Shown in pieces: positions 3,213 to 29,543 of a DNA stretch of 64,000 nt (its first letter is position 1; the number at the start of each line of letters is the position of its first letter). Origin of the DNA: Eukaryota sp. GEM-RC1 (Eukaryota); contig JAUFOQ010000006.1 in the NCBI GenBank assembly GCA_040285855.1, positions 434,001-498,000 on the forward strand. Reading direction: 5' to 3'. The notes under the pieces were generated by a model. That model did no database searches. It was not told the DNA's origin and worked only from the letters and a program-made list of their open reading frames with translations. Made by a program: the position numbers and the translations under genes.

Positions 3213-3630
3213 TCTTTATTCATTTTTTCGTTCTTTATAAATTTTTTTGTTCTTAGTTTTTATGGTTAATTCTACACCTCAGACAGTGACTTACGTGATC
3301 TTATTTATTTGTACATCTATTGTTTTCACTACTCGCAGTACTTAGGTAAATCTTACATGCAGTCGTTATAACTTTTAACATACTGTAGGTTAGTAAATTG
3401 ACATCAATGTTGGTTTGTTTCAATCCATACAGTACAGTACTATGTTTGTGTATACATGATGTCATTAGAATTATTCGTTCATCACATGTCGTTAAAATAA
3501 ATTGAATGTATGTCAGGTGTATTGTCAAATTGAAGATGTCGCAAAAAGTCAACTGTAGTCCAGATCAGTTTACAGATACTCTTCATCATTACTCTCGCAT
3601 GCATGTTTAGCGGGATGAGGTCCTCTCGCT

Positions 3631-3910
3631 CTCCCCCTCCGTGTCAATTCCCCTCCAATGAACTACACACACATACTTAAAAATAAGAGCTATGCCGTGT
3701 GTGGTTCTTCTCTCGCTGACGGTACAGTTTCTCCCCTCCGTGTCAATTCCCCTCCAATGAACTACACACACATACTTAAAAATAAGAGCTATGCCGTGTG
3801 TCGTTCTTCTCTCGCCTGACGGTACAGTTTCTCCCCTCCGTGTCAATTCCCCTCCAATGAACTACACACACATACTTAAAAATAAGAGCTATGCCGTGTG
3901 TGGTTCTTCC
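3631..3910 (+). repeat. About 2.8 tandem copies of a ~100-bp unit at the 5' end of the 2A/Fanzor ORF
   Basis: CTCCCCTCCGTGTCAATTCCCCTCCAATGAACTACACACACATACTTAAAAATAAGAGCTATGCCGTGTG recurs at ~3631, ~3731 and ~3831. Confidence 0.95.
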
Positions 3911-3970
3911 TTGCGAAGTGTTTTAGACCTCTCTTGTACAGTTTTCTCCTCCCGTCCCACATTCAAAGAA

Positions 3971-4012
3971 GATCTCACCATGGATGGTGACGTGGAATCC
4001 AATCCAGGGCCA
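3971..4012 (+). other. 2A-like ribosomal skipping (StopGo) peptide DLTMDGDVESNPG|P
   Basis: Exact match to the D(V/I)ExNPGP consensus, in frame in ORF 3791-4198. Confidence 0.9.
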
Positions 4013-5298
4013 GTTTCTCAAGAAGCTTTAGATTGTTTGCAACCTGATCATTTGGTAGATGATGAAGTCTTTGTTGAGTTTTCTAGATCCATATTTCAAA
4101 CATATTTCGAACTACAAGCATCTAGTGTTGATTTCGATGATCTTTTTATTCAACCTGCTCTTTTAAAAGGATATTATCTTTTCCTGATTTATCGTTAGAT
4201 GTTTTTATCAATGACAAAGTCAATGTCACTAAGGCAAAAGGATACAACTATCTCATAATCCCACTAAATGATTCCATGACAGAACCGGCCAATGATGGAA
4301 CTCACTGGGGGCTAATTATTGTCGATTGTGTGCGTTTGGAAGGTATATTTATTGATCCAAAGTGTGATTCAGATTCTTCAATAGAATCTTCGTCTTTGAA
4401 ACAGATATTCAATATAGTTGAAACAACTTTTGGAACTTATAATCTCAAACCAGTTCCTGTTGCATCCAAGCAAACTTTAAACGATGGTGGAATTTATGTC
4501 CTAAAATATATAGAGAAATTTGTTGAACTTTTGTCACAATTACGAACAATCCCTGGGCTGTATTTGGAATCCAAATTGCTTGAAATAGCCAACATAAACA
4601 CTGTAGAAGTTCGACAAGAGATTCAGAACCGTTTGAGTCGAACAGAGACTAAACCCAAAAAAGTTGTTTCTGATGAGACTTTGACCTCTGTGGAACCGAA
4701 TAACTGGGTCGATGATGAAGTTATACGACTATATTGTAAGAAATTATTTGAAATTTATGGTTAAGATTGGACTTCTTTTATCCCCCCTTCAGTGATGAAG
4801 TATTACATTACTAGTAACAATCTGTTTTCTTTTCTACTTGATAAAACTCTCGAATGTTTAAATCGAGGCAACAGATTTCTTATTGTTCCGTTGAATGATG
4901 GATTTACAGAACCAACACAATCTGGTATTCATTGGGGTTTGATTATCATTGATTGCTAAATCAGGAACTGGATGTTTATTGACCCATATTACGATACTGG
5001 TGATTTTGTACAGGATGGAAATATTATCAAGACTTCTCTGCTGACAAATGTCCTTTCTATAGTTGTATCAGTTCTTAGCATTCTTGAATTCGAACCAATT
5101 GTTTTTCCTGTTACGCGAAAGCAGACGCCCAATGATTGTGGAATCTATGTTATAGAGTATATTCATCAATTTTTGAACAATCTAAGTGAACTTCCAAGCC
5201 TGTCTCATGCTGAATCGTTGTTGCTTAATATGGAAATTGATGCTCTTGCTGTTCGAAACGAAATCTACTCGTATCTTGAATCACTTAATCCACCAGAG

Positions 5299-5352
5299 GA
5301 AGAAGAAGAAGAAGAAGAAGAAGAAGAAGAAGAAGAAGAAGAAGAAGAAGAA
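5299..5352 (+). repeat. (GAA)n microsatellite encoding poly-Glu
   Basis: About 18 GAA repeats. Confidence 0.95.
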
Positions 5353-5431
5353 CAGCTAATGAAGAAGAATTGTCTATTAGGTTAACAGATCTACCACCAA
5401 AATTACAAGCATCTATTTCTTTATATCCACC

Positions 5432-5522
5432 TGATACCGTTTGGCTACAAAGGGTAGGGAAAAGATGTTTATAAATAAAATAATATGATCTTGTAACACT
5501 TCACTAACACCTGTGGCTAACA
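5432..5522 (-). repeat. 3' LTR of family A (91 bp)
   Basis: Identical to 24820-24910; preceded on the minus strand by the polypurine tract GAAAGAAGAGAAGAGG. Confidence 0.95.
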
Positions 5523-6995
5523 TTACCTCTTCTCTTCTTTCGAGCTCCTAGTTCTCTTTGCTACAGGTGTCTTAACTTTGGAAGACGTCTTAGGAGTACT
5601 CTTACTACTGGAGGTACGTTTAAGCTTAGTGTTGTTATTACTAGACCTGTTTCTATTGTTACGAAATAAATCTAAATTGTCTAATTTTACAAAGTCACTA
5701 TACGCTTTGGTGTTCTTGATGTCCTTGATGGGAACTGATGAAGTATCACCACCAAACCAAAGTACAGTGCAGAATTCACCATCGGGTGTATCAAACCTAT
5801 CTAGGATCTTAACCACGATGTGTTCTTCAGAATTCCCAGAAGCAATTGCTCTGTGGAGATCATGATCAGCAGGTAGATCTGATTGAAAGATCTTACATTG
5901 ATGAATGCTAGTCTTACTAACATATCCAGTGATCAGATTCTTTAATGAAACAGAAGATTTTGAATCAACTGAGACAACTAGAAAAGGTCCAGTGTAGTTT
6001 CCATGGAGCTTACTAGTTTTGGCGACCTCTAACACAAGATCTCCAATCTTAAATGATTGACTAGTGTTAAACTTCTTCTTAGGCTTGAGTACTGATTGAC
6101 GATCATCTGCATCTTCTCTTTTTTTTGTTAAACGTTCTAGTTTCATTTTAATGTCGTTAATAAACGGAACATTCTTTGTCGATTTCTCAACAGCATCTAG
6201 TAAACCACTAGGATCTGCACCAGGACTTATGTCACTACCAAACATCAGTTCGTAAGGAGTATGCCCAGTTATTGAACTCTTTGTTGCGTTGATCTGCAAC
6301 TGTACAGTTGGAATGTACGTTGACCAATTGTCATAATCATTGAAGTCCACAAGAAGACGACGTAGGCTTTGCAGAACGTCTCTGTGACGTCGTTCCACCA
6401 GTCCATTACTCTGGGAGAAATGAGGAATCGAACGACTTACTTCAATCGTCAGTAGGTTACATATTGCCTCGAAAATAGCATTGGCAAACTCCGTACCATT
6501 ATCACTATGGATACAAAACGGTATTCCGAAGATAGCAATCACATCCCACACAAGACGATATGCTACTTCTCTACTGTTGAGTTCTTCGAGGGGGCTCAGA
6601 ATGGTGTATCTGGTGAAAGAATCTACAAACACCAATAGGAATTGGTTTCCATTTTGATCTTTTGGAAGTGGACCGATTGTGTCGACATTAAGTCTAGCAA
6701 AAGGTCTATCAGCCCATAGAGAACCCGTCGATTCAATTATCTTTTTTAGGGATAGGTGCCGTTTTCTGACACGCAGGGCATTGCTGAACATGTTTTATCA
6801 TGTCAGCTTTCATACTCTGGCCAAAAGTAACCACTATTGAACAATATTTCCAAACTTCGTTTCTTGTTTGGGTGTCCTGACTGGACTAAGCCATGTAGCA
6901 TGTAAAGAACTTTCTTTATTAAGCTAGATGGAATCAAAATCTTGTTCTTTGAGTTCATGTATACATTACTCATTGTACACAAAATTGAACCATTA
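5523..6995 (-). CDS. Family A integrase (HHCC, DDE, GPF motif, degenerate chromodomain); frameshift near 6800
   Basis: LHGLVQSGHP..FWP, VDTIGP, SDNGTEF, NGLVERRHR, GPFLV, and EEHIVVKILD...CTVLWFG. The stop codon abuts the LTR. Confidence 0.92.
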
Positions 6996-7079
6996 TGTAA
7001 GTATATAATAGCTAATAGCAATCATAAACTATCTTAATTTCACTCCATACTTTCGTATGTCTTCTAACACAAAGCATCA
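6996..7079 (+). repeat. 5' LTR of family B (84 bp)
   Basis: TGTAAGTATATAATAGC...ACAAAGCATCA; copies at 13074 and 19578. Confidence 0.95.
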
Positions 7080-9087
7080 ATATATATTGGCTTCTAATGC
7101 CAAGAAGAAACTCTCCCCAGATGAACTATCTGCTCTGTTTGGTGGAGTACCTTCTTCGGAAGGGTTAGGGAAACTCCCCCTCCCAAAGAGCAAGGGCTCC
7201 TCGAAGAGAACCAAGCGAAAACCCCAGCCTGCCGAGCCGGAAATATCCGACTTTGCCGTTCATCCTCCCCTCGGTGTTTCGGATACCTCCAAATCCTCTC
7301 CTGAAAAGGATGGAGGTACTTCAAAACCCTCTCCTGAAAAGGATGGAGGTACCAAATCCTCTCCTGAAAAGGATGGAGGTACTTCAAAACCCTCTCCTGA
7401 AAAGGATGGAGGTACCAAATCCTCTCCTGAAAAGGATGGAGGTACTCCTAAACCCTCTCCTGAAAAGGATGGAGGTACCAAATCCTCTCCTGAAAAGGAT
7501 GGAGGTACTCCTAAACCCTCTCCTGAAAAGGATGGAGGTACTCCCAACATCTCTCCAGAAATGGATACGAGAACTTCCCACATCAAAACTTCCCCTAACA
7601 AAGGTAAGAAGGTCGGGAAGAAGTTGGGTAGATCAAAGCCTGTCTCAAGGTCCAAATCCAGACCCAAGAAAGACAGAGGCTCCCCCATGTTCCGTAAGCT
7701 AACGAGTACGGCTACTAACAGTCTGATCAGCAAGTATATCCCATCGTATGATGAGGAAGACCTCACTTTGACAGACCTCCATGTGACTAGCCCGGAAAGT
7801 AGTAGCTCATCTCTAGTGGAAGTTAGTCCAGCTTCTCTAGTAGACGTCAGTTCAGACGACGGACTTCCCCCTCCTTCCTCCAAGTCGGTTCCCATTGAAA
7901 CTGGTGACAAAATGATTGAGCGCCTCATTCGAGAAAATCATGAGTTGAAGCTCTCTATGTTAGAACTTATCAGCGAAGTCAGGGCTGATAGGAAGAAACA
8001 ACCCTCACATCCAGTCATTCCTCCAGTGAAGCCCAAGAAAAAGGTCACAGCAGGCAGCATCCAGACTATCGGTACTGATGATCAGTTGCCAAGTATAGCT
8101 CTGCCATCGGCCTTCTCCACCTCCAGAGTCGATTTTTCCTCTGTCGAGGATCCAGCCGGATTCACCGAATCTGCAACCGGCCACATCTCTCCCCAGAACG
8201 CAGCCTTCGCCGAGCTTGAGAAAGAATCTCGCCGGGAAGCTAAGCTCAAACCCCCGTACCTCCAGAAAACGGATCCCCTTTCATGCTACAACTTCGCTCT
8301 TGAATGGAGAAGATACTTTAGAGCTAGAGGACGTGGCATTGATGCTGCTAAGCATCTCCATGACTTAGAAAACCAAGTGCAAGCTTGGCGATCAATCGCT
8401 GATCCTAAAACCATGGATGAACTCCTTTCCCCGTTTGAAGATCAACTCTCAATCAACAAACCAACTCATGGTGAGCCCCTCCATGGATTGGATCTCGCAA
8501 GAGACCTCCTCTTAAATGTGGATATCCGCGGCTTACAACTGCATGTTGATCCCTTAATCCTCACCTCCTGGAAGAATGATGGGACTATCCCCACATTCTT
8601 GAACAATTGGTACATCTGGGAACGTATCATCTTGAACACCCAGGCCGAAAATCCTCGTCAAGGAGAAGCCTTGATTGCTAACTGTATGATGGACTGGTCA
8701 CAGAACAGAAGGTTCAGGTCCAATCGGGAACGGTGGGACGATTATCTACGTCGTTTCACCAGAGTTGCCAACGCCTGCACTCTAATCCCCATCGACGAAA
8801 AGCATTCATACAGCTTTGACGTTCGTCTCATGATGAAACATTTCGCAAGGAACGTTGGAATCCCCATCGTTTTCCATGACGTCGAGTATTTTTTCAAGGA
8901 CAAGGAAATATTCAAAGAATACACCACCAACGAGATCATCAAGAACATCAAGGATCGTTATCTCAACTGGTGTAGTCAACACCCAAACTTGGATCCAGCC
9001 AGTCTTGCCTTAGCTGACCAACGTATCTTGGATGATACAAGAATCTCCACCCCTCCCCCTCACCGACAGTGGAATCGCCGACATTAG
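7057..9087 (+). CDS. Family B Gag-like ORF1
   Basis: 676-aa ORF starting inside the LTR and preceding pol; contains SPEKDGGT repeats. Confidence 0.8.
   Translation: MSSNTKHQYILASNAKKKLSPDELSALFGGVPSSEGLGKLPLPKSKGSSKRTKRKPQPAEPEISDFAVHPPLGVSDTSKSSPEKDGGTSKPSPEKDGGTKSSPEKDGGTSKPSPEKDGGTKSSPEKDGGTPKPSPEKDGGTKSSPEKDGGTPKPSPEKDGGTPNISPEMDTRTSHIKTSPNKGKKVGKKLGRSKPVSRSKSRPKKDRGSPMFRKLTSTATNSLISKYIPSYDEEDLTLTDLHVTSPESSSSSLVEVSPASLVDVSSDDGLPPPSSKSVPIETGDKMIERLIRENHELKLSMLELISEVRADRKKQPSHPVIPPVKPKKKVTAGSIQTIGTDDQLPSIALPSAFSTSRVDFSSVEDPAGFTESATGHISPQNAAFAELEKESRREAKLKPPYLQKTDPLSCYNFALEWRRYFRARGRGIDAAKHLHDLENQVQAWRSIADPKTMDELLSPFEDQLSINKPTHGEPLHGLDLARDLLLNVDIRGLQLHVDPLILTSWKNDGTIPTFLNNWYIWERIILNTQAENPRQGEALIANCMMDWSQNRRFRSNRERWDDYLRRFTRVANACTLIPIDEKHSYSFDVRLMMKHFARNVGIPIVFHDVEYFFKDKEIFKEYTTNEIIKNIKDRYLNWCSQHPNLDPASLALADQRILDDTRISTPPPHRQWNRRH
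7291..7542 (+). repeat. Eight 30/33-bp coding tandem repeats (SPEKDGGT)
   Basis: CCTCTCCTGAAAAGGATGGAGGTAC occurs 8 times. Confidence 0.95.
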
Positions 9088-11242
9088 GCATTCAAGCGTC
9101 CCTCGTCCCCACCTTTCCAAGGTATTGAAATATTCAAGAGGTTTTGCGTCAGACAGTGACGACGATGCTCACCACTCCCACAGACAGAAAAAACGTCGTG
9201 GTCGGAAATCCAGTGGTAAACACCACGCCCAGAGGTCCCAACCTACAACTCCCAGCACCCCTAATTCCAACATATGCAAATATTGTAAAGAACCAGGCCA
9301 CGCTGTAGAAATGTGTCCCAAGCCAGGATGTAAATCCTCCTCACTGTATACTGGTAATACAGACCCCCGCCGCAAGACACGCCGTTCAGGCAATCATGTA
9401 GGTAAACGTAGTAATAAATCTGATAACTATTTGTATTTTTTAGACACCTCTACATCCCCACAACCACTCAACAACCCTATCAGAGATTTAATCAATGATA
9501 CACCCAGGGTCATGAGTATAAACAGCAACCCCCACAATAATTTCATAAATTTGAATTTATTGGTTAACGATGTCCCAGTAACCGGAACCATCGATTCAGG
9601 CGCACAAATCTCAGTCATCACATCCGATTTAGCCGAATCATGCAACATGAAGATTTCACATGATACTTTATCATACATCACTGCAGATGGAAACCGTACA
9701 TCGTCCTTAGGCACAGCCAAAGGTGTTCTTGCGTTCACACTGAATAGCGCAGCTAACCTAGTGTTTGTAGATCACTCATTCCCAATTGTTACAGGTACCC
9801 AAACAATGCTCATCGGGATCGATTTATTAAACAAACTAGGGCTATTAACAGAGGACAGTCTAGTAATAAAACTGGATAAAGAACATAACATCATCATGAA
9901 AGATGAATCAGAATTCGATCACCTAATGAGCACTCCTCCATCAATGAAATCAATCAGAGACACCGATCATTCTACATCATTCAATCCAGTTGAATCAGGT
10001 TGCACAATCACTTTGGACAATCCTCTTCTAAATCAACAACTGTCATCCCTCTTAGAAGAGTTCAGGATCATATTCCAATCAGCACCACACCCCGATGGAA
10101 TTGATTGTCCACCAATGAGAATCCTCTTCCATGACGAATCAACTGTCGTTAAACGGAAACCTCGTTTCTTCAATCCTGAGAAACTAAAGATTGCCAATGG
10201 CATCTTTGATGAACTTATCGAACAAGGATTCGCCGTGTCTTCCCCCCAATCTAAGTTCTCAAGCCCTGTAGTACTCGTCACGTACCCTGATCATAGGAAA
10301 CCACGTCTGACTGGAGATTACAGCGGTACAGGTGGTGTTAATGATCTAACTGTTCCAATAGCATCTGACCTACCCAACATCGCTGATGTGATTACATTCT
10401 TGCCAGCAGCAAACTTCATTGCAACCCTCGATCTCCCAAAAGCCTTCTGGCAACTCAAAGTTGCTCCTCAAGATATGGACAAAACTGCTTTATCAATCCC
10501 TGGTAGAACAATCACATTCACTAGAGCTCCATTCGGCTTGAAAAATGTACCAGCAATTTTCCTAAACCTGATGACAGAGATCTTCGCAATGGACGGAGTC
10601 TTCATCTATCTAGATGATATCATAGTTATAGCTTCAGCGTTCGATGAATTTATAACTCGACTTCGAGCAGTTTTTAATAAAGCACAATCCGCCAGAGTAA
10701 CCCTCGGCATCCACAAGTGCAAGTTTGTAACTCACAAACACCCAATCAAGATATTAGGTAGTATCTTCCACAACAAAACCAGATTAATCGACGATGTCAG
10801 AATCAAAGCTGTTCTTGAAATTCCAACTCCCAAGACAGTGAAAGATGTCAGAAGCCTCGTAGGCTCCATCAACTACATCAGAGACTGGTTACCAGGAATA
10901 TCCAAGTTGATAGCCCCTATCATTGCCCTAACAAAAGGAAAACCAAAAGGCGTGAAATGGGAACCCCAACACCAACAAGCTTTCGACTCAATCAAAAGGT
11001 TGATAGTCAATCAAATCCCCCTCGACCTTCCTGGTCCCAATTGCATTATCCTCATTAGCGCAGACGCTTCTGATCTAGCAGTGGGAGGAGTCATTTGGAA
11101 TGAGACTACACCAAGTCCTCCAGATACTCCGCTGATAGAACGAAAGGTTCAACCTATAAGTTTCTACAGCAAAATACTGACCGAATCTCAGCTCAACTGG
11201 GCAACCATCCAGAAGAGCTTTATGCCATTCTCCCCATCCTAA
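9032..11242 (+). CDS. Family B pol: CCHC knuckle, aspartic protease, RT, start of RNase H
   Basis: CKYCKEPGHAVEMC, IDSGA, LDLPKAFWQ, PFGLKNVP, YLDD, ADASD. Frameshift near 11215. Confidence 0.95.
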   Translation: MIQESPPLPLTDSGIADIRHSSVPRPHLSKVLKYSRGFASDSDDDAHHSHRQKKRRGRKSSGKHHAQRSQPTTPSTPNSNICKYCKEPGHAVEMCPKPGCKSSSLYTGNTDPRRKTRRSGNHVGKRSNKSDNYLYFLDTSTSPQPLNNPIRDLINDTPRVMSINSNPHNNFINLNLLVNDVPVTGTIDSGAQISVITSDLAESCNMKISHDTLSYITADGNRTSSLGTAKGVLAFTLNSAANLVFVDHSFPIVTGTQTMLIGIDLLNKLGLLTEDSLVIKLDKEHNIIMKDESEFDHLMSTPPSMKSIRDTDHSTSFNPVESGCTITLDNPLLNQQLSSLLEEFRIIFQSAPHPDGIDCPPMRILFHDESTVVKRKPRFFNPEKLKIANGIFDELIEQGFAVSSPQSKFSSPVVLVTYPDHRKPRLTGDYSGTGGVNDLTVPIASDLPNIADVITFLPAANFIATLDLPKAFWQLKVAPQDMDKTALSIPGRTITFTRAPFGLKNVPAIFLNLMTEIFAMDGVFIYLDDIIVIASAFDEFITRLRAVFNKAQSARVTLGIHKCKFVTHKHPIKILGSIFHNKTRLIDDVRIKAVLEIPTPKTVKDVRSLVGSINYIRDWLPGISKLIAPIIALTKGKPKGVKWEPQHQQAFDSIKRLIVNQIPLDLPGPNCIILISADASDLAVGGVIWNETTPSPPDTPLIERKVQPISFYSKILTESQLNWATIQKSFMPFSPS

Positions 11243-11343
11243 CAGAATCGAGTCTGGCAAACTTCCTCAAGACTAGACACCTTACAATCTTCACAGATCA
11301 CAAGAACCTAGCATATCTTATCTCGTGTCCCGATAAGAACAGA

Positions 11344-13073
11344 ATGGTCAAAAGATGGCTATTCGTGCTATCAGAATACCAATTCGACATAGTACACACA
11401 TCCGGAGTAGACAACCATTGGGCAGACATGCTCTCACGGTTATGTCCTCACAACAGTTCCCCCTCGCATTCCGATGCTCAGCTCACTGATGATCCAGTAG
11501 CTACTCCAAGAATTGACCACACAAACATCCCATCAATTAACAGTCTCCGTGAAGTTGCACAAAGAGATCTCCCAATTTTCAGCAATTGGTTGAGCAGAAT
11601 CCGTTCCGAACAGCGTAAAGCAGTCGAATCAAACGAACCTCTCTTCATCAACACAACATTCAACGATAGAGTACAGTTATATCTAACTCCCAACAAGAAA
11701 ATCCTGATCCCATTGTCCCTCAGGAAATCCACCTTGCTAAACATCCATGGACTAGTTCAATCCGGTCACCCCAGTTTATCCACGTCTATCAAAACTCTGA
11801 ACGACAGCGACTACTGGTGGCCAAACATGAAAGATGATTTAACCAATCACATCAAGAACTGCCCTTCTTGCCAAAAGATCTCTCCAATCAAAAGAGATCA
11901 AATCCCTCACTCAGGTTCCCTTTGGGCTGATAAGCCCTTCTCCAAAATCAATGTTGACACTATTGGTCCATTATCCCCTGATGCTGACGGTAACCGTTTT
12001 ATTTTAGTATTCGTAGATTCTTTCACTAGATTCACAATACTAGTTCCAATAATCGATCTGAACGCCAAAGAAGCTGCTTATGCACTCGTGTTCAACGTTT
12101 GTGGTATATTTGGTATCCCCTACTCCATCCACAGCGATAACGGTCCTGAATTTGCTAACGCAACATTCAACGCAGTATGTCAACTGCTGGCAATTGAAAA
12201 CTCAACGTCCATTCCGCACTTTTCTCAATCAAACGGGCTAGTCGAGAGACGTCATCGTGATGTCTTAAGAAATCTTCAACGTTTCCTAATCGACTTCGGT
12301 ACATTCGACAACTGGGCTGAATACATTCCCTTCGTCCAACTCCAGCTTAACGCTACCAAGAACCGTTACACCGAACACACTCCCTATGAACTCATGTTTG
12401 GGTCCTCTTTTGGTCCTAAAGCAGATCCCAGTCTCATAATCAAAGCTCTAGAAGCATCCAATTTAAGCATCCCTTTTATTGAAGACCTTCAAAGAAAAAA
12501 CGAGAGAATAAAGGAAAAGCAGGAATCAGTAAGTAGCAATCAATCGTCAAAGAGACCCCCTAAGTCCAATAAATCAAATCCGTTTGGAATTGGCGATCTG
12601 ATCCTCAGATCCTCTAAGACTGCTACAAAGCTTCATGGCAAACACTCTGGCCCATTCCTGGTCATCGAGATCCCTTCACCATCATCCTTGAAAATCAAGA
12701 ACCTCGTATCTGGCGTTGAGTCCCAAGCCAGTGTACATCAATGTAAGCTGTACAACTCCGACCTTCCATCTAACCATGGTATACACCAACAAGTTGCAGC
12801 TGGTGATAAGGAAGAACATGTCATCATCCAAGTGTTGGATCAGTTCCACTCACATGAAGGACCTATGTGTTCTGTTCTGTGGTATGGCGGTGATATCACA
12901 ACAGTTGCTTCTTCTAGCATCAAAAACACTAAAGCCTATGTCGAGTTCATGAAAATAATAATAATCCTCCCTCGAGTCCCAGAAAGAGAACCTCATCCAA
13001 AGCTAAACCCAATAAAACACCTATAGCAAAGAGAACTCGCAGAAGCGTTGGCTCGAAGAAGGAGAAGAAGTAG
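11344..13073 (+). CDS. Family B RNase H end and integrase with degenerate chromodomain
   Basis: HGLVQSGHP..CPSCQ, VDTIG, SDNG, VERRHR, GPF. A frameshift near 12955 relative to the 17847-19577 copy. Confidence 0.93.
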
Positions 13074-13157
13074 TGTAAGTATATAATAGCTAATAGCAAT
13101 CATAAACTATCTTAAATTCACTCCATACTTTCGTATGTCTTCTAACACAAAGCATCA
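13074..13157 (+). repeat. 3' LTR of family B
   Basis: Follows the PPT GAAGAAGGAGAAGAAG and the TAG stop; followed by TSD ATTA. Confidence 0.95.
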
Positions 13158-13290
13158 ATTAAACAGTTGATCTCCTTGTTCTATAGCTTTAGATTGTTCT
13201 GACCTAATGGTGGATAACCAAGAGTCAAATAAAGGAAGTTTATTGTCTGTTGAGAGATTACGAAGACATTTGATAGCTAATACGTTGGAG

Positions 13291-16329: not shown

Positions 16330-16345
16330 TGCTGTCCTAGCATAA

Positions 16346-19300: not shown

Positions 19301-19577
19301 AGCTGGTGATAAGGAAGAACATGTCATCATCCAAGTGTTGGATCAGTTCCACTCACATGAAGGACCTATGTGTTCTGTTCTGTGGTATGGCGGTGATATC
19401 ACAACAGTTGCTTCTTCTAGCATCAAAAACACTAAAGCCTATGTCGAGTTCATGAAAAATAATAATAATCCTCCCTCGAGTCCCAGAAAGAGAACCTCAT
19501 CCAAAGCTAAACCCAATAAAACACCTATAGCAAAGAGAACTCGCAGAAGCGTTGGCTCGAAGAAGGAGAAGAAGTAG
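16346..19577 (+). CDS. Family B pol (RT, RNase H, integrase), duplicated 5'-truncated copy
   Basis: ORFs 16285-17745 and 17847-19577 are nearly identical to 9032-13073. Confidence 0.92.
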
Positions 19578-19661
19578 TGTAAGTATATAATAGCTAATAG
19601 CAATCATAAACTATCTTAAATTCACTCCATACTTTCGTATGTCTTCTAAGACAAAGCATCA
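19578..19661 (+). repeat. Duplicated 3' LTR of family B
   Basis: Same 84-bp LTR followed by ATTA. Confidence 0.95.
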
Positions 19662-22600
19662 ATTAAACAGTTGATCTCCTTGTTCTATCGCTTTAGATTG
19701 TTCTGACCTAATGGTGGATAACCAAGAGTCAAATAAAGGAAGTTTATTGTGTGTTGAGAGATTACGAAGACATTTGATAGCTAATACGTTGGAGTCACGT
19801 GGAAGCATCTCAACATAGTCTGCATCATCATAAAGTAAGCCTTCATGAGAAAGGGTTAAATCACTTTTGATGGAAAGATTTGAGATCGTTAAAGATTTGA
19901 TTGTTTCAACTGGGCGTCGGTCAATAACACGTGACAACATGTCAGCCCATTGATTGTTTGTACCAGCTACATGTACTATCTCAAAATCGAACTCTGAGAA
20001 AATTGGAATCCATCGTTTGACAATACGATTCTTTTCTGGAGCAGATATTAGATAGGCAAGGTTCCTATGATCAGTAAAGATCGTCAAGTGCCTACTTAAC
20101 AGAAAACCTTCTAAACTAGATTCGGTCAGAATCAAAAGAATGGCATACAGATCTTTCTGGATAGCTGCCCAATTCTGTTGACTATCATTGAGTAAACGGC
20201 TATAAAAAGATACAGGTCTAACTCTACGTTCTTCTAACGGAGTTCCTGGAGGAGCTGGAGGATTTTCTTCCTGCCAGATCACACCACCAACAGCAATGTC
20301 GGATGCATCTGTGGATATGATAATGTTCTTATCAGTATCAGGTAAGTCTAAAGCCATATGGTTTATAATCTCAGACTTTAGTTGAGTTAATAGAGCATCA
20401 TGGTCTTTTGTCCAAACAATTTTTTGGGTTTACCACGAGTCAGTTTATTGATTGATGCAGTCAAGTTCGAATAATTCGGAATCCATTCACGAACATAATT
20501 CAAAGCACCAAGTAAACTTCTAACTTCAGGTAAGGTTGAAGGAGCAGGTAACTCAATCAACGCCGAAACTCTTTTATCATCTATGCAACGGGTTTTATTA
20601 CAAAAGTTGCTGCCCAGAATCTTATTAGGATGTCTAGAAGTGGTGAACCTACACTTCTTCAATCCAATCCGTACTCTAAAACGTTCTGCTCGTTCCAGTA
20701 CTAGATTTATTCTTGAAATAAACTCTTCAAAGGTATTGCCTACAACAATTATATCATCAATATAAATGAAAACACCTTCGACATTGAAAATTTCCATCAT
20801 GATTTGAAAAATTGCTGGTACGTTTTTCAATCCAAAACATGCTCGTTTAAAGCTAATAGACATTCCAGGTATAGACACACTGGTCTTCTCGACATCTTCT
20901 TCAGCTACATTTAGCTGCCAGAATGCTTTAGGAAGGTCAAGTGTTCCAATGAAATTAGCTTTCGAAAGAAACTCTAGAACATCACAGATCCGTGGTAAAT
21001 TTGGTTTCACCGGTCTGGTATTAGCATTAATCCCATCAAGTCCACTGAAATCTCCAGTTAAACGAGGCTTACGATGATCATTATAAACCACCAAGACTAT
21101 GGGACTGCTGAACTCACCAGTTGATGGTACGGCCCATCCTTGTCGTATAAGTTCATTAAAAGTTTCTTCGGCTATACGCTGTTTTTCAGGGTTAAGCCTT
21201 CTAGGAGGACGAAATACAGTGACACTTTCATCATAGAATGGAATTGTCATGGGTGGACAATCAATACCATCAGGATGTATATCTTCTGAAAAGACTTGTT
21301 TGTATTTACTGAGTAGGCTCAGAAGCTCCGTTCTTCTTGTAGAATCATCCAATTCTATCGTACAACCAGAGTTGTCAATGGTTTCTTCAAACAGATTTAT
21401 ATCTAATTGAGTGTTACCGTACTGATCAATAGTAAAATGTGTTGAATTTGGTTTTATTGAACATTTTGATTGAACTCTATTAATCGAAATTGATGGAGAC
21501 CTCATTCTCTCATCAAATTCACTCTCTGCATTGAGAATAGTGCTATGTTCTTTATCTAATCTAATGACTAGACCATCATCCGAAAGCAACCCCAGTTCTT
21601 CTTGCAAGTCTCTACCAATGAGGAGAATTTTTGTTCCTGGAACTACTGGTAGAGTATGCTTAACATGAATCTGGTTGGCCAAGCTGCCAACGTTGAACGT
21701 CAGAACACCTATTGCACTACCTAAGGAAGTAGCACGAATATTATTCGCTGAGATGTATTCAATACAACTATCAGTAGTTGTCATCTCACAGTAGCGTATC
21801 AAATCTTGAGAAATGACTGAACATGATGCTGCTGAGTCAAATTCTCCTACTACTGGTACATTGTTGATTAACAATCGAATACATAAAGGACCCTTACCTT
21901 TAGAATCGAACCCTAGGTTTTGGTTGAGACTACGAATTGTTTCAACAGATGATGTACTTCTACCCTTGCTTGAATGTGTGTTCAAAGCAGCCAATGGGTT
22001 CATGTACTTATGAGGTGTAGTGTGATTATCTCTAGATGTGTTATTTATTGCAAGTCTGAAAATATAGTTATTCTGTTGTTTATTGGAACTAAAACGACGA
22101 CTAAAAGATTGACTACGACTGTCACCTGATCTACGTTTGTTGGACTTCTTATCACTGTCAGATTGAGGTTTTGATCTACAATCAGTGGAGTAATGGCCCA
22201 TTTTTCCACAGTTAAAACATTTAACCGTAGACTTAACATCTCCAGGTGTACCATGAGATTGAGAATGGGGCTTGTTTGCGGTATTTGGTCGATTTCTTCG
22301 ATTTCTAGAAGGAAAACGACTGGAAGGAGTGGATAAGGACTTCACAGCTGTGGAACGCTTGTAGGTAGTCCAGATCGATCTAACTTCTTGGAAGAATTGA
22401 GGTAGCTTATCATCCTCAGTTTTGAGACGATGATCCCATCTAAGAACAAGTTCATTCAAAGCAATAATTCCTTTGTCAGGATTCAGTGTTTCTAACATCA
22501 ACTCGGCTACTGTGGAAGCAGGGACCTTTGTTCGGACAGTTTCATCACTCGACGTAGCTATTATCGCCATGGAACATTTGGGAACGCTAATTACGCCACG

Positions 22601-22867
22601 GAGGTGTCGGTCAAAGCACTCAGCAGGGTCTTTGGAGCTACCCAATCTTATTTCTTTAATTGCATCAATGGCTGTTGTAGTTGATGAGTATTGACTCTTG
22701 TTAATCAATAAACGCCAGATGTTTTGTTCAAGTACCTGACTACTGTTGTTAGTACCAATCAAATCTAACATTTTCCAATCATTCAAAGTTGTTTGATCTA
22801 TGAAATGACTAATGCCAGCTGGATCAATTTCACACAATGCTGTCCTAGCAAGGTCGAATTTGTTCAA
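19659..22867 (-). CDS. Family A gag-pol (CCHC, protease, RT, RNase H); frameshift near 20420
   Basis: ORFs 20387-22867 and 19659-20357; RT motif YIDD. Confidence 0.93.
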
Positions 22868-24812
22868 AGGAGTACCAATCCAGAGGTCATAATCGAAACG
22901 TTCAGTTTGTTTTCTGACATGACATGAATAAACTTGACAACCTCATAACGAGTGTCGTTTTTCAAGAACGGCTCTCTGTCTTTTTTCTTCTTGATCTTCT
23001 TGGGAGGAGTCACACCAGATGAGAGAATAACAGAATCATGAAGGACATTGTCAGGACGTTCATCTTCAGAGGATTGACTAAGATCGATGTGATTTTCAAT
23101 CGATGGAGACAAATCAGGAAACTTGTTTGATTGTCTATCTCTTTCTGCTTTGGTTTTGTTGGCTTCAGCAATCAACTCGTTTCTATGTCGAATTTTCGGT
23201 TCTTCGAGTTCTTTTTTCGACATGACTGTTGATTCTTGGTTCAAATCACGAGTGAAGTTCTCGGTTACACGGTAAACGTTTTCATGTTCTTCACTGGCAA
23301 CAAACCGATCAACGTCTCCAAATTCTCCATCAAACTTTCTAGTTGAGAGAATATCACGTGAACCATTAGTGAAGCGGTCAACAGATTCTGGACGGAAAGG
23401 TTCACCAGGAACGTGAGCAGAAAGGCGAGCAGTTTGACGTAGCTCTTCAGGCTTGGGAAGAAGTGTACCAACTTCTCGTAAAGCACCATGAGCAACAGGA
23501 AGGACCTTTTGAGATCCACCAATGCCACTACTGTTGGACAACCACAGAACCTTCATCAGGAACAGCTAAGGTCGTGTTTGATGCTTCAAAGGTTGACTGT
23601 GGAAGGTTTTCATATCTATGACCAACGGGAAGGTGTCTAGAACTAACAGCGACGTTGTGATACGTCTTGACTTGATTGCTCAAGCTTTGACAATACCACG
23701 CTGAGTAAGCATACGTAACGTATCTACCATCGGCATCGAAACTAGGTTCCAATGGTTCAATCAAGATACCATGACGAGGATCCCATGAGTAATCCGAGGG
23801 ATAACGATACGTATCCCCAGCATCTCCATCATACAAATCACCCAGAAAGCGTTCAATAACTTGAGGGGAAATACCTGGAGGAACGTTCCTCAACAGATAG
23901 TGCCGTCTTTTAGGCATACGGTTGCGGATGACAGGATGCCAAGGAGCGAACTTCGCCAAGTGCCACATGTCGTAATCAGAGATACCAACGCTGTTGTCTT
24001 GTGGACTTACCCAGGGTATGAGTCTATTTGGGATAGCATCCTTATGGAAGTGCTGTTCCTCAATAGACCCAACTAGCTCTTCGACTTTGTTGCCTCGATC
24101 TTCTGGAGAGAGACTCATCTTACGAGCTAGAAGTTCCTTTTCAACAAGAAGCTTCTGTTCTGCTTCGAGTCTTCTAGACTGCTCTTTGGCGAGAGATTCC
24201 TGTAACTTGCGAATCTCTTCAACCACTTCAGTTGACCTCTTTTGAGGAACTGGAACAACATCGGGAATGCTTTCTTTATTAAAACTATTTCTACGAGGGA
24301 AGAATAGGGAGAGGAGACGCTATTACAACAACATCATGACTCTCGGAATGCGGAGTACTGCTACTGTCAGCATCGCTTACTCTATACTTCTCTAACAAGC
24401 TTGGGATACGGTCTGAAATTACAGAGTGAGTATCCAAACCCACTTCGCCATCCTTGTGGGAAGACGAAGTCCTTCCATCCTCAGATGGGCATCCACCTTA
24501 AGGTTGAACATCTACAACTCTACGAGAAGTAGATTCACCAACCTCAGGTGAGATTTCCGTCACCTCCTTGTGGGAAGTGGGGCTTCTATCCTCAGATAGG
24601 CATCCGTCCTCAGACAGGCATCCATCCTCAGATGGGTCACTTTCAAATTCCGACGAGTCAACTGACTCTTCTGTCTCAGGAACCAATGGCTCCTTTCGAC
24701 GGGAAGACACTTTGGAGCTAGACTTAGATCTAGTCAAAGGTTTGTTTCTACGATTAGTTTTGTTTCCCGCTTTTGGGGGGTTAGTAGTCCTTTTCTTCAC
24801 CATCTTGGACAA
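22864..24812 (-). CDS. Family A 5' ORF / Gag N-terminal region, broken into several frames
   Basis: ORFs 24498-24812, 23528-24226 and 22864-23556 lie collinear between the 5' LTR and gag-pol. Confidence 0.6.
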
Positions 24813-24819
24813 TAATTAT

Positions 24820-24910
24820 TGATACCGTTTGGCTACAAAGGGTAGGGAAAAGATGTTTATAAATAAAATAATATGATCTTGTAACACTTCACTAACACCT
24901 GTGGCTAACA
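24820..24910 (-). repeat. 5' LTR of family A (91 bp)
   Basis: Identical to 5432-5522; followed by TSD CACC on the + strand. Confidence 0.95.
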
Positions 24911-26010
24911 CACCGTCAATGCAAAAGGATATACTTATCATGGAAGAAAGTCTACACACTGAACCTGTAAAAGAAGTTGTTTCTGTAGACACCTTAGTCT
25001 CCTTATCTAAAAAAGAACTACATAAACCTCAAAAGAGTGGAATTACTCCTCCATTTAAGAAATCGAATCTATCAGAATTAACAGAAACAGAAGAAATCCC
25101 AACATTTTGTTTAATTGATTTTAAAACCATGATTACTGATGCAAAACGACTCAATCCAAGAATTCTCAAATCACCTAAAACTGTATTGCCTAAAAAAAGT
25201 GTCGACTCTGATGATATTGAAGATGACTCTGAGGAACCAGAGGATGCTGATGTACCTAAAATCAAAGAAGAAGTTGAAGCATCGAGAGCAGAACTGTTTG
25301 CAAATCCTTTGGATAAAGAAGACAAAATAATCTTTATCAGTCTCAAATTTATCTATGCTAATTTCACTTCAACTGTTATTTTTAGTAAAAAGAACATAAA
25401 CAATACTTTTGAAAATGTCGAAATAATTGTTTGTGCTTCAGAAGAAGCCATGATTGGGGAACTTATCCAAGTTTTATGCCAAACAAAACCCAGATTGTTT
25501 ATTGGATATAACACTGATGAACTTTTGTTTCCTTTTTTGATTAAACGGTGTGAACTGTATAAGATTCAGACCAATTTTCATTTAGATAATCCATACAGAC
25601 CCTACGTACCCAACTGGTTTCATAGATGGTGTAAGCTTTGCAATTTTGGACCCTTTGTTTCTCTAGACTTGGCAAATGTTACAAAGTCTACTTATGTGTT
25701 CAAAGGTGGTAGAAGTTTGGAAAATGTTTGTTCAAAATTGTTTCGGAAACATGTACCCAATTTAATTTTGTCGTCATTAGAATTAACTACGTACTTCACA
25801 GAATTTCGAAAAGTACCAGGCATAACCGTTAATAAGGAAATAGAGAAAGAGTTTAACCTACTCGCACACAACAAGCAAACCTTCAAATTGTGGACTGATA
25901 ACGTAAAAGTAATTACTCTGGTTGATGATTTACTTCAACGAATTAACTGTCTAACTGAATTACATGAATATTTCTTTGATGAAGAAACTCAACATGTTCT
26001 AGAGCGCCAT
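24911..26010 (+). pseudogene. Middle part of the Fanzor polyprotein: inactive family-B DNA polymerase 3'-5' exonuclease-like domain
   Basis: FCLIDFKT (ExoI-like), SEEAMIGELIQVLCQTKPRLFIGYNTDELLFPFLIKRC (ExoII-like) and SLDLANVTKSTYVFKGGRSLENVCSKLF. No polymerase palm motifs. Confidence 0.75.
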
Positions 26011-28773
26011 CCAATTAAAGTGGTGAAAAAGGGATTGGAGAAAGTTATTAAAGATCAGGATAATATTGTCTTAATTAAAGGCTGTGTTATCCGAAATCAA
26101 AGAGCAACAGTAAGGGGTTCTAATTTTTGAAACATCTCCATATTTGTGAGTTTGAAACACGTGGATGTGAATTAAATTTGATGAATCCTCATTTTTTCGT
26201 CCATATCTCTTAGAATCTTCTGTTTCGGAATCAAAAGAACGAGATTTAATGTACGAACATGATTTTTTTGAGAAACGACTTCGTGAAATGGAGTTAATGT
26301 ACGAACATGATTTTTTTGAGAAACGACTTCGTGAAATGGAGTTAATGTATGAACATGATTTTGATTCGTATCCATCAGAACTTTCTGATTTGTTGGCATT
26401 AAATGAACGTAAATTAATGAAGAGTCATGATACAATGCCTGATTCTGATGATGCATTTGTTTTCCCCTACACTAAGTTTTCAGTAGTCTTACCAGATTTG
26501 GAAAAAACTGCTTAAACACGATTCTATTAGACAAGTATTGAGACGGATGTATGTGAAGAAATCAACTGGTTCTTCAATTACAGAGTCAGAACTAGAAATG
26601 TCAAGAGCAGAGGCTCAAAAGTGATTGACGATTTCCAAAAATCTTCAAGACTGGAAATGATCGAAAAGAAAAAATTGCATTTCAGTACTTGAACAATTTT
26701 TCTCCACTGTTACAGCAGTTATCTACTGAAATTGGAACAAATCAAATTTCATTTCCTGATTCTACGTCAATGTCTCCCATATTTCATTACACTGCCAAAC
26801 AAATTTCTACAAATTATGCCAACAATATGGTCAAAAATTTTCATGATTATGTTTTCAGATTCTTTAATCTGGTGACAAGAAAAAAGGTCAGACTTGAACA
26901 AATCAATGATCAAGTTGATAAGAAAGAATTGATTTCGAAATTGAATTCAGTCAGAGATTCGATTATTAATGGAAATTTTGATAACATTCCAATTGCAGAT
27001 CACGAGATTTTCCCTTATCCACGTGAAGAACTAACGTTGAGGTTTTTTGCGTATTTAAAATTTTCTTTGTTTCCAATGTTTTCAAAAAGAACATTTACTA
27101 TTTACAGAAAGCAAAGCCGACAGAGTTAATTTCTCATGCTCTGTACATCAACCGAACAATACAATCTTTGTGTTTGGTTGATGGAAAACCAATCAGTGTA
27201 AACAACCCTTTTCCAATGACGAAGACATTGATTCCTCAGCATATTCGTTCAGCAGATGAAATAAGAAAAAAGGTCTTTGATCAGGTCCTTACTGACAAAG
27301 CTGTGGCACCAACAAAATCATTTGTCTTTAGATATTCTTCAATTCTGACAGATGGAATTTCTTGTTGTTTGGTTTTAATGAGAAAAGATTTGGTTGATGA
27401 AGATGGAAATACCTTCAAAGATTTTACTGCTAAATCTCTTGGAACTTCGGAAAGATACATTCACTCTTTATCAAATGAGAATATTCACGAATTACAATTG
27501 AAAGAAAAACGAATTGTCGGTATTGATCCCAATGAATATGATTTAATGTATTGTGTTTCAGAAAAGACAGTCGATGAGCTTAAAGAAGAAGATATTTCTG
27601 AAAATAATCCACTCAAAAAACGATTACCCTCAGAAATCAGGAGTAAGAAAAGAGGAGGAATTAAGAAAAGAAAGAAACAATTGCAAGATTGGAAAAATTC
27701 GAATAATGATGTAAAATCAAAGAAAAAGGCTAAGCACAAATGGAAGAAGTTTAACTACACAGCTGGAGAAAGAGCTTACGATAGAAAATCTAAAAAATAT
27801 CGTAATTCCGAAAATAAGAAACTGAAAGAATTATCTATCGAATCACCAGATGAAACTGTCACTGAAAGACAACTTAAAGATTTTTTGGTTCTTCGTCCTG
27901 ATAATATTCTTGTAACAGGAAGAGATGTCGTTAACCAATTTTCCAATGCTGTATCAAACGGGGAAAGAAAGTCGTGTTTCAGCGACACATTTGAAACATA
28001 TATTAAAGAAGCTGAACGATATAATGTATATTTGAATTCTTTTTACGAAGATGACTGGTTTAGAAAAAGGAAATTCCAAATTTATTCAAATAACCAACGT
28101 TCGGAAAAAAATATGCTGGAACGCTTCAATTTAACATATGGACCTCCAGAAGACGTTGTCATTGGCTATGGGGATTGGAGCTCAAAAGGTAAAACAAGAA
28201 AGGGCAAAACCTCTACTGTTAGAGGAGTGGAAATCCGTAAAATGTTAAGAAGATATGGATACCAAATATTTCTTGTTGATGAATACAGAACAAGCAAGTG
28301 TTGTTCCAAATGTGCTGAGGAAAAATCAACTTTCGTAGAATGTGAAAATGTTTCAGAACTAAAGGTTCTTGGTCCAAAAGGTAAGAGACAGCTAAGAAGG
28401 AAGAAGAGAAAGTTAAGAAGAGAAATTTTGCTTAAAAACAAACAAGATCCTCTAAACCAACGGGATTTTGGAAGCAGAGTGGGAGGTGAAGCAGAAGTCA
28501 TTGGAAGAAGAAGCTAAATCCACACCCTGGGGACTGGTAAGGTGCTCAGATGCTGAGTGTGGTACTTATTGGAATAGAGACCTAAATTCTGCCATTAATA
28601 TCTATTCCATCATTGAAGCAACGATCAATGGTCAAGGTAGGCCATCCGCTCTCGAGAGATCTAAAACTCAAACAACAGATCTCGAGAGTGGTAAGGATAC
28701 TTTGGCGAGAGACCAGAAGAAGAAGAAGACTGCGACCAAAAAGAAGAAAAACTTCAACAGGAAAGACTCGTAA
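26011..28773 (+). pseudogene. Fanzor1 (eukaryotic TnpB-like RNA-guided RuvC nuclease), frameshifted
   Basis: KVVKKGLEKVI..IKGCVIRNQRA..NF; YTAKQISTNYANNMVKNF..RFFN; PFPMTKTLIPQHI; SILTDGISCCL; VGIDPN (D at 27525); FRKRKF..NQRSE; IGYGDWS; LVDEYRTSKCCSKC (E at 28281); LVRCSDAECGTYWNRDLNSAINI (D at 28579); GRPSAL. Confidence 0.92.
26246..26363 (+). repeat. 48-bp coding tandem repeat (LMYEHDFFEKRLREME, about 2.4 copies)
   Basis: Directly visible duplication. Confidence 0.9.
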
Positions 28774-28912
28774 GAAACCAACATGTGGAAATTGTGGCCA
28801 AGAAGGTCATAACAAAACGTCATGCAAGAATCCACCAAAAGAAATGAGTTCGCCTAAAAGAAGAAGCGTAAAGTCAGTCAAGAAGAAGAAGGTCTCTCGT
28901 AAAGAACTTTAG
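28770..28912 (+). CDS. C-terminal CCHC zinc knuckle and basic tail of the Fanzor ORF (frameshifted)
   Basis: RKKPTCGNCGQEGHNKTSCKNP in ORF 28613-28912. Confidence 0.7.
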
Positions 28913-29060
28913 TGTACTTTTAACGGTACACAGCGAAGTGGGCTGAGCTCACTGAGTGTCTGTGGTTTCGATACTCTAATCAAAATGAAAATTAACAAAG
29001 TTGTGTACTTTGGGAATATCCATTTGAGTTGAGAACCACAGTGTTGGAAGCCATGAGAGA
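28912..29060 (+). ncRNA. Candidate Fanzor omegaRNA scaffold
   Basis: Directly after the stop codon: hairpins GTGTAC/GTACAC (28912-28931) and AGTGGGC/GCTCACT (28937-28953), then a long stem CTGTGGTT (28960-28967)/AACCACAG (29034-29041) enclosing CAAAGT/ACTTTG. The position matches known Fanzor/TnpB omegaRNAs. Confidence 0.6.
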
Positions 29061-29089
29061 ATTTAAATCACTGTTTTGTTTTTCAGAAC

Positions 29090-29368: not shown

Positions 29369-29543
29369 AGAGTCAAATTCGCTTTTTTGTTTTTAAGAAC
29401 TCTTAAATTGTGATGTACAGGATTATGTTCTACATCAATGTGCGCTTTCCACACATTGAATCAATATGTATGATTAAATCGGTTGGTTTAGTTAGAGATA
29501 TTTTCGTAAAGAAGAACAAGAATTCAACAACTTCCATCTTGAT

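Follow-up and report, generated by a model that had tools for sequence, protein, structure and literature searches.

Fanzor1 joined in frame to a DNA polymerase-type exonuclease, with 2A and C48 protease modules, in a dispersed gene family of metamonad assemblies

In a 64,000-nucleotide stretch of contig JAUFOQ010000006.1 of Eukaryota sp. GEM-RC1 (hereafter the window), we found a Fanzor gene split by retrotransposons, which belongs to a dispersed family in which a Fanzor1 nuclease is joined in one reading frame to the 3'-5' exonuclease domain of family-B DNA polymerases (PolB), with a 2A-like motif and C48 proteases on its N-terminal side. The order of the domains, the dispersal of the copies, their position on a single tree branch and the state of the catalytic residues are observations of which we are practically certain. 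Our overall interpretation, to which we give an even chance, is that this dead, split copy represents a multi-copy Fanzor1 family of DNA transposons that would be moved in trans and copied back with the aid of the exonuclease.

Results

A single gene split by nested retrotransposons

The gene is interrupted by a nest of long terminal repeat (LTR) retrotransposons of about 19.5 kb (5432-24910). The two outer LTRs of 91 bp (5432-5522 and 24820-24910) are 100% identical and have TG...CA ends, and the nest is flanked on both sides by CACC (5428-5431 and 24911-24914), the target-site duplicate. When the insertion was left out in silico, the flanks read as SIRLTDLPPKLQASISLYP joined directly to PSMQKDILIMEES. 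Protease domain 2, the poly-Glu run and the same junction lie in one frame in two further gene models, P0050 (95% identical to the window copy) and P0051 (92%), so the join is not due to chance. A sequence-only reading of this DNA had proposed both an insertion within one gene and the peptide across it; the LTRs, the CACC duplicates and the conserved junction bear out the former, and the latter was reproduced here and is in frame in these two models. That reading had also placed a frame slip at the end of the GAA run; the slip exists, but it sits just after the run, where the paralogues read EQL(L/M)SKE instead of TANEE. On the right-hand side of the insertion, the window DNA itself runs from the exonuclease into Fanzor in one continuous frame, as had been claimed.

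Read from ATG 3791, the gene comprises about 1,880 codons. This ATG is in frame with the 2A motif (ATG 3891 is out of frame) and sits inside a 100-bp tandem repeat, making the true start uncertain. The window copy is dead: besides the LTR nest it carries nine frameshifts, two stops and a 15-codon deletion near 27250 that takes out a conserved WED motif. Six of the nine frameshifts adjoin homopolymer runs, and frameshifts at such places are perhaps sequencing noise. Indel noise in the assembly is evident because two host genes at 29496-37785, encoding a WD40 protein and a TmcB-like multi-pass membrane protein, are both broken by single-base slips. An altered genetic code was considered for the TAA stops and rejected, since host and LTR open reading frames (ORFs) 400-1,000 codons long are uninterrupted when read with the standard code and both paralogues carry Gln at the position of TAA 4957.

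The insertion is a minus-strand Ty3-type element with a plus-strand Ty3-type element nested inside; identical TG...CA LTRs, a short duplication and the order protease-reverse transcriptase (RT)-RNase H-integrase assign it to Ty3/Gypsy. Both nested elements have unusually short LTRs (86-91 bp). Positions 9843-16342 are repeated at 16346-22850 with 99.6% identity, and this 6.5-kb tandem duplicate, which spans parts of both elements, may be an assembly artefact or the product of a recent unequal crossover. The nest was rejected as the mobilising part of the Fanzor element, being absent from P0050 and P0051.

Table 1 Features of the split Fanzor gene and of its immediate flanks (positions in the window)
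Feature	Position	Strand	Remarks
100-bp tandem repeat, 2.8 copies, just 5' of the coding region	3634-3909	+	Probable 5' end region; unit fold z -3.2
Predicted 2A-like ribosome-skipping motif, DLTMDGDVESNPG followed by P	3971-4012	+	Motif recurs at the corresponding place in P0006, P0007 and P0053
C48 protease domain 1, SENP8-like	4013-4650	+	His present, Gly in the position of the catalytic Cys; frameshift near 4200
C48 protease domain 2	4663-5283	+	His, Asp, Gln and Cys all present; TAA stops in frame at 4762 and 4957
Poly-Glu run and linker	5284-5431	+	One-base slip near 5365; ends in the left CACC
Outer Ty3/Gypsy-type LTR retrotransposon, in the gene and outside the Fanzor element	5432-24910	-	gag-like, protease, RT, RNase H, integrase
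Inner Ty3/Gypsy-type element	6996-19663	+	86-bp LTR-like repeats at 6996, 13074 and 19578
Right CACC, remainder of the linker, GITPPxKKS motif	24911-25070	+	Motif common to four aligned subfamilies
Family-B DNA polymerase 3'-5' exonuclease domain	25100-26010	+	ExoI Glu, ExoII Asp and ExoIII Tyr/Asp lost
Fanzor1: WED/REC, RuvC (D 27525, E 28281, D 28579), C4 zinc finger	26011-28680	+	Six frameshifts, 15-codon deletion
Basic C-terminal tail with CCHC zinc knuckle (28784-28825)	28681-28912	+	Frameshift near 28745; stop TAG 28910-28912
Three adjacent hairpins directly after the stop	28912-28976	+	Candidate omega-RNA scaffold
Fragment of another repeat, right-hand bound of the Fanzor element	29112-29369	-	Like the end of a restriction-like endonuclease (RLE)-type non-LTR element

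Uninterrupted relatives with the same domain order

Among 7,986 candidates scored in a search of proteins of 869-2,480 aa, the sole match was P0001 (29% identity), which has the exonuclease and Fanzor together and belongs to a cluster of nine members. Two members of this cluster, P0006 (1,732 aa) and P0007 (1,755 aa), contain the 2A motif, one SENP8-like C48 domain, the PolB exonuclease and Fanzor1 without interruption; they align to each other without a gap over 1,633 aa (93%), and from 2A to RuvC-III their order follows that of the window colinearly. P0053 (1,473 aa) has the 2A motif, exonuclease and Fanzor1 and no protease, and like P0038 (1,182 aa) holds exonuclease and Fanzor in one model. 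In total, the family comprises 34 named gene models on 17 contigs of three related metamonad assemblies: 22 models on 10 contigs labelled GEM-RC1 (8 of them 85-98% identical to the window copy, 13 at about 57% and 1 at about 43%), 11 on 6 contigs in TZLM3-RCL and 1 in TZLM1-RC. Four subfamilies, mutually 20-60% identical, have an equal domain order, and their constant core is the exonuclease plus Fanzor1. The proposal of a mobile family with a single long frame running from 2A through C48 and the PolB exonuclease to Fanzor1 thus holds in uninterrupted models and in dozens of dispersed copies. Two outcomes named in advance as speaking against it, namely parts unlinked elsewhere and failing profiles, were checked, and neither was found.

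One could suppose that errors of assembly or of gene prediction created the fusion, given the frameshifts of the window copy and the gaps in some relatives that resemble invented introns (seen in P0044). However, the order is identical across such divergent subfamilies, P0006 and P0007 are gapless over 1,633 aa, and the exonuclease-Fanzor frame is present in the window DNA itself; we regard this explanation as already largely refuted and hardly credible.

When 1.84 billion representatives were searched with a profile, 3,328 matched, and among the best 150 of these were P0053 and otherwise stand-alone Fanzors, mostly of 580-1,030 aa. A profile built from the family's exonuclease matched 14 of 199 proteins, all family members. 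Pattern scans of metagenome (34) and viral (16) loci returned distant stand-alone Fanzors only, with the exonuclease, protease or 2A in none of the 50; the exonuclease patterns had no match in viral or prokaryote contigs, and the Fanzor patterns had none in prokaryote genomes. In a 39-row tree, made of longer sequences and including 34 randomly drawn non-family rows, the five longer family representatives form one side of a branch among stand-alone Fanzor1s with support 100/99; in an 88-row tree, from which 85 of 145 non-family representative matches (P0055 on) were left out, 13 family rows form one side of a branch with SH-aLRT 97. Both trees were made without named Fanzor references, the unnamed fragments were grouped by us, and many outside rows differ in composition.

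The host is likely a metamonad like Skoliomonas, because the strain names match those of nanopore-based assemblies of Skoliomonas metamonads (PMC11316075); Fanzor is never mentioned in the accessible part of that paper. As a separate observation, a subfamily B exonuclease model, P0032, lies beside a Fanzor of another subfamily, P0017 (locus tags 007297 and 007298). This neighbouring Fanzor is about 35-43% identical to the others, and the pair may represent a recombinant element or nested insertions.

The nuclease is a Fanzor1

Searched with phmmer against solved structures, the window Fanzor gave three matches at E<0.001, all of them Fanzor1: SpuFz1 (E 2.8e-11), PpFz1 (1.8e-9) and GtFz1 (5.7e-4). 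The Fanzor motif of Bao and Jurka, D-X(125-275)-[TS][TS]xx-C4 zinc finger-X(5-50)-RD, was found in the window (254 residues from D167 to T422 of ORF 27027, then CxxC...C-x4-C and WNRD across one frameshift) and also in P0006, P0007 and P0053. The RuvC-II Glu lies six residues ahead of the zinc finger (VDEYRTSKCCSKC in the window), with equal spacing in the relatives. The AlphaFold prediction for P0038 reaches good confidence from about residue 350 to its end, and all seven Foldseek matches to it at E<=0.001 were Fanzor1, with Fanzor2 at E 0.95. By motif, sequence and fold, then, the window nuclease and its relatives are Fanzor1, and the earlier assignment, with three RuvC acidic residues and four zinc-finger Cys retained, agrees with the phmmer and Foldseek results. 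By analogy with characterised Fanzor1s, the cutter is likely RNA-guided. Four models of subfamily A and two unnamed relatives also have the CCHC zinc knuckle of the tail, which the TZLM3-RCL set lacks. A 48-bp tandem repeat (26246-26362) lies inside the Fanzor1 region.

Live and dead forms of the exonuclease

The window exonuclease matched PF03104 above cut-off (E 1.4e-9), as did those of P0038, P0053 and P0006 (Atlas 0.94). Every match was to a DNA polymerase exonuclease domain and none to an RNase, and no polymerase domain accompanies it; calling the domain "replisome-like", as had been done, therefore overstates it. With the motifs defined as ExoI DxE, ExoII FD and ExoIII YxxxD, the window sites read IDFKT, YNTDELLF and DLLQR, meaning that the catalytic motifs are lost, and the same loss was seen in the subfamily B models that cover those sites. 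In contrast, all three motifs are intact in P0053, P0006, P0007 and P0044, which represent two subfamilies, while P0001 has E for the ExoIII D and P0005 has K for the ExoI E. The earlier description of a dead exonuclease thus holds only for the window subfamily and its sister. The dead domain is likely still under selection, as judged from sequence, because between subfamilies A and B it is conserved nearly as well as Fanzor (55% identity versus 60-63%). The P0038 model places the end of the last exonuclease helix at 347 and the beginning of the first Fanzor strand at 351. A model of the exonuclease alone was poor (pLDDT 37), and its Foldseek matches to archaeal PolB, resting largely on sequence, were not counted.

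The element and its mobility could be as we propose while the exonuclease does something else, either trimming the 3' end of the guide RNA or serving as a non-catalytic nucleic-acid clamp or spacer. Retention of the domain in frame, at nearly Fanzor-level conservation after the catalytic loss in subfamilies A and B, favours such a role, and enzymes of the DEDD fold do include RNases. Fanzor guides also have a defined 14-15 nt 3' extension that needs trimming (PMC10432273). However, all matches were to exonucleases of DNA polymerases, and stand-alone Fanzor1s mature their guides without such a domain; we consider this role for the exonuclease unlikely, although it is the foremost alternative to the trimming of DNA ends proposed below.

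Protease and 2A modules

The number of proteases in the family varies from none to two: two in the window, one in P0006 and P0007, and none in P0053. Both window pieces score under the Pfam cut-off, whereas the paralogues P0050 and P0051 exceed it (27.5 and 23.4 bits versus 20.7), and the C48 assignment was reached with an Atlas score of 0.95 and 28 of 30 matches to C48. Domain 1 of the window reads NDGGIY where NDCGIY is expected, so its catalytic Cys is gone; domain 2 has both the C48 profile and the catalytic His and Cys, and is broken in this copy by stops. Twin SENP-like proteases had been claimed, and two C48-like domains are indeed present in the window; the twin arrangement is known only from this copy, as both P0050 and P0051 start within domain 2. 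The nearest solved relative of the P0006 protease is human SENP8, also called NEDP1 (E 4.6e-7, versus 0.58 for Ulp1), although a profile search places the bacterial effector NopD as near as SENP8. The proposed de-NEDD8/SUMO activity may thus be narrowed, in that nearness to SENP8/NEDP1 suggests NEDD8 over SUMO as the substrate, with the equal rank of NopD qualifying this preference. The protease as a processor of the polyprotein was rejected: the exonuclease-Fanzor boundary has no conserved Gly-Gly, and P0053 retains the fusion without any protease.

The 2A motif, GD(V/I)ExNPGP, matched once in six frames of the 64 kb, at 3989, near the N-terminus of the reading (3986-4012), and it occurs in 3 of 199 proteins examined, all three in this family. 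Its recurrence in P0006, P0007 and P0053 upholds the claimed 2A peptide as a predicted ribosome-skipping site; sequences bearing the motif can be inactive (PMC3708506).

Ends of the element and its mobility

We infer that the right end of the Fanzor element lies before 29112, where a fragment of another repeat begins. Directly after the stop, three hairpins fold with z -3.15 in sense and -1.0 in antisense, in a stretch picked by eye. Rfam gave no match at gathering score, including at 3200-4100; one sub-threshold snoRNA match was taken as chance. Of Helitron2 features, hairpins were found on both sides, with inverted matches of 8-9 bp at chance level only, and the PIF1 genes of the window have no Rep domain. 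No long family member has a transposase domain, and neither RT nor endonuclease was found in P0006, P0007, P0053 or P0038, in agreement with the earlier statement that the element lacks a transposase or RT of its own.

The N-terminal modules might point to another origin, namely an RNA-borne parasite of a non-LTR retrotransposon that took its 5' part (tandem repeats, 2A and a Ulp1-type protease) and zinc knuckle from that element and has Fanzor in place of RT. An N-terminal 2A is known from non-LTR elements (PMC3708506) and N-terminal Ulp1-like proteases from NeSL and Utopia (PMC4640811), RLE-like fragments are dispersed across the window, and many models without the N-terminus share one C-terminus. 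On the other hand, neither poly(A) nor a repeat tail is present downstream of the hairpins, RT and RLE are absent from every long member examined, and the short models are equally explicable by frameshift errors. Moreover, a 2026 review sees no Fanzor-encoding retrotransposon, and elements that do not excise gain nothing from homing (PMC13565253). We find a retrotransposon parasite improbable, a little more so than the clamp or RNA-trimming role, and keep to a DNA transposon.

Surroundings of the gene

Two diverged, inverted copies of a PIF1 helicase cluster lie at 1-3212 and 38713-42665 (Walker A at about 200 on the minus strand and 40780 on the plus strand), the first adjoining the Fanzor element. 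Their back-to-back ORFs of unknown function are 42% identical over 107 aa (E 4e-18), possibly marking another repeat family, and a 14-bp tandem repeat of 10.5 copies (807-953) lies between two ORFs of the first copy. The Fanzor gene could accordingly be cargo of a larger mobile unit, such as the PIF1 cluster at its left, which is about 400 bp from the repeats and has its diverged second copy in the window, or a virus-derived element, given that related stand-alone Fanzor1s sit on giant-virus contigs. Clan-CE proteases and PolB are common in giant viruses. Yet the second PIF1 cluster has no adjacent Fanzor, no capsid, polymerase or Rep domain is near the locus, and the 50 metagenome and viral loci lack the other modules; the cargo explanation seems to us quite remote compared with a self-standing transposon of the Fanzor1 family.

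The remainder of the window is rich in other repeats. Fragments like the 3' end of non-LTR elements, which we take to be RLE-type from their motif and which have no Pfam match, lie at 29112-29369, 38300-38366, 47437-47949, 54875-55192 and 58419-58798. A hAT-like transposase ORF (50693-52991; DUF659 and dimerisation domain) is located between two partly palindromic 57-bp direct repeats, and a MuDR remnant (56440-57078) has weak DBD_Tnp_Mut and SWIM matches, the intervening region apparently having been deleted. Nested short elements resembling miniature inverted-repeat transposable elements occupy 44862-46468, with terminal inverted repeats of 36 bp at 44862/46433 and 29 bp at 45115/45733, and with repeats of 5 and 17 bp in their interior.

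Discussion

How might such a protein serve its element? In characterised Fanzor1s, a 3' transcript acts as guide and the cut falls 16-21 nt past the target-adjacent motif (TAM), SpuFz1 cutting after base 16-17 of the non-target strand (PMC10432273). By analogy, the 3' transcript of the present element would very probably be the guide, and the enzyme would cut the element-free site 16-21 nt into the right flank. A transposase encoded elsewhere would, somewhat more probably than otherwise, move the element, probably via the 5' module common to divergent subfamilies: leader and 2A of P0053 and P0006 are 60% identical and their bodies 21-31%, and a shared 5' module across divergent bodies, like the cases of Bao and Jurka, suggests mobilisation in trans. 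Once the site is vacated, Fanzor would re-cut it and the element would be copied back after trimming; such restorative homing, in which a re-cut vacated site is copied back from the sister chromatid, has been proposed (PMC13565253). Trimming would matter here, as the TAM-side 3' end after the cut would bear about 16 nt of right flank; in the donor this stretch lies beyond the element, and it would have to go before synthesis. In yeast, the proofreading activity of Pol delta removes as much as about 40 nt from invading 3' ends (PMC9477423), and the exonuclease, joined as it is to the first WED strand, might tentatively be thought to chew back the tail in the same manner, while the dead form would only bind the end. 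The 2A would probably free a leader of about 36-46 aa, so that the protein always starts at the same Pro. For the protease the balance is even: it may strip NEDD8 or another ubiquitin-like tag, shielding the protein or tuning repair, and would be dispensable.

Several points weigh against this interpretation. No inverted repeats of at least 10 bp and no convincing target duplication were found between 3201-4000 and 28781-29500, in a copy that is decayed and has undefined ends, and no partner transposase was identified, though these genomes were not searched for one. The post-stop hairpins are matched in folding by 3 of 40 random window stretches. The relatives are known as gene models and not as DNA, and predicted introns could bridge breaks in them; the position of the exonuclease is only modelled, with pLDDT under 50 for that part of P0038. 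The two subfamilies with a dead exonuclease still spread (8 and 13 models), so spreading does not require catalysis by the exonuclease. Tails can already be trimmed by the host's own Pol delta or Rad1-Rad10 (PMC9477423), the demonstrations of restorative homing concern prokaryotic TnpB and IscB and not Fanzor (PMC13565253), and engineered exonuclease fusions reduced Fanzor2 editing (PMC12923547).

The missing transposase leaves room for a more radical explanation, in which cutting, trimming and host recombination-type synthesis copy the element into empty homologous sites and into new sites. The many dispersed copies at 85-98% identity, the occurrence in three assemblies and the lack of a transposase domain in long members are compatible with it, and TnpB drives an insertion sequence through a plasmid population without TnpA (PMC13565253). 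Homing, however, reaches the homologous site only, with no known route to unrelated loci, and transposase-less Fanzor families are common, their usual account being mobilisation in trans (PMC3627910). We hold this to be doubtful, on a par with the retrotransposon parasite or slightly below it. In its fullest form, which is equally doubtful, the element would be all in one without transposase or RT: one protein would cut, trim and disarm NEDD8 control, and host synthesis would copy the 5.5-kb element, also into new sites. If true, this would be a natural, RNA-guided, eukaryotic all-in-one cut-and-write editor.

Returning to the trans-mobilised Fanzor1 transposon, its closest known counterparts are SpuFz1 of Spizellomyces punctatus (PDB 8gkh; PMC10432273), PpFz1 (9cf0) and GtFz1 (9cer), which have the same WED/REC/RuvC/zinc-finger fold. 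Characterised Fanzor1s also share the D-E-D triad, the Glu six residues before the zinc finger, multiple copies and the lack of an internal transposase, and their structured 3' end may have a counterpart in the hairpins after the stop. SpuFz1, however, stands alone as a protein of 633 aa, and its 2.1-kb element has terminal inverted repeats (PMC10432273), whereas the proteins of the window family measure 1,470-1,880 aa and carry 2A, protease(s) and exonuclease on the N-terminal side, and inverted repeats were looked for without success. CRe-1/2/3 (Helitron2), the Sola2 chimeras and MCi-2 resemble the family in a common 5' module, mobilisation in trans and unclear ends; their extra proteins are separate transposase genes, and none has a 2A, C48, PolB exonuclease or Fanzor fusion in the accessible part of the source (PMC3627910). 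Optional fused deconjugating proteases are known as Ulp1 in Ginger1 and Mutator (PMC2836005) and in NeSL and Utopia (PMC4640811), and as OTU and VTD in Helitrons (PMC9741609), sometimes doubled or inactive as in the window copy. Their partner is a transposase, RT or RepHel, while here it is an RNA-guided-type nuclease and the protease is nearest to SENP8/NEDP1. Among non-LTR elements, L1Tc, Ingi, CR1, L2 and Crack have GD(V/I)ExNPGP near the N-terminus of a long ORF (PMC3708506), but with APE or RT, which the window family lacks; the term 'DNA transposon' is absent from the accessible main text of that paper.

The exonuclease resembles that of family-B polymerases (Pol delta, 3iay; archaeal KOD-type PolB), with ExoI/II/III intact in two subfamilies, and differs in having no polymerase domain, in its attachment to Fanzor and in being dead in the window subfamily and its sister. 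Engineered Fanzor2 fusions with TREX1, TREX2 or T5 exonuclease likewise tether an exonuclease to Fanzor; those are man-made and lowered editing (PMC12923547), while the present fusion is natural and kept across subfamilies of 20-60% identity. No natural Fanzor with a PolB exonuclease, C48 or 2A was found in the searchable literature, which did not include Repbase, subscription journals and figure S1B of PMC10530073. No such fusion appears in the accessible parts of PMC10530073, PMC10432273, PMC10711439, PMC10691335, PMC13565253 and PMC6338049, and two supplementary files of PMC10530073 contain none of the relevant Pfam names. Each part thus has a precedent, the combination has none in the literature searched, and the protein is otherwise a Fanzor1; the earlier remark that no example had been described stands within that literature, the domain figure S1B not being covered.

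These observations extend Fanzor1 to metamonads, in a form more than twice the usual length and with a proofreading exonuclease, and place a 2A motif and a SENP8-like domain on an element without RT or transposase. The fusion is a natural model for editors that combine a nuclease with an exonuclease, for which engineered constructs have not succeeded, and the intact-looking models of 1,473-1,755 aa in public databases are expressible. The role of Fanzor in eukaryotic elements has so far been inferred from bacterial TnpB; live and dead exonuclease forms within one family would provide natural controls for whether Fanzor cuts are steered toward homing.

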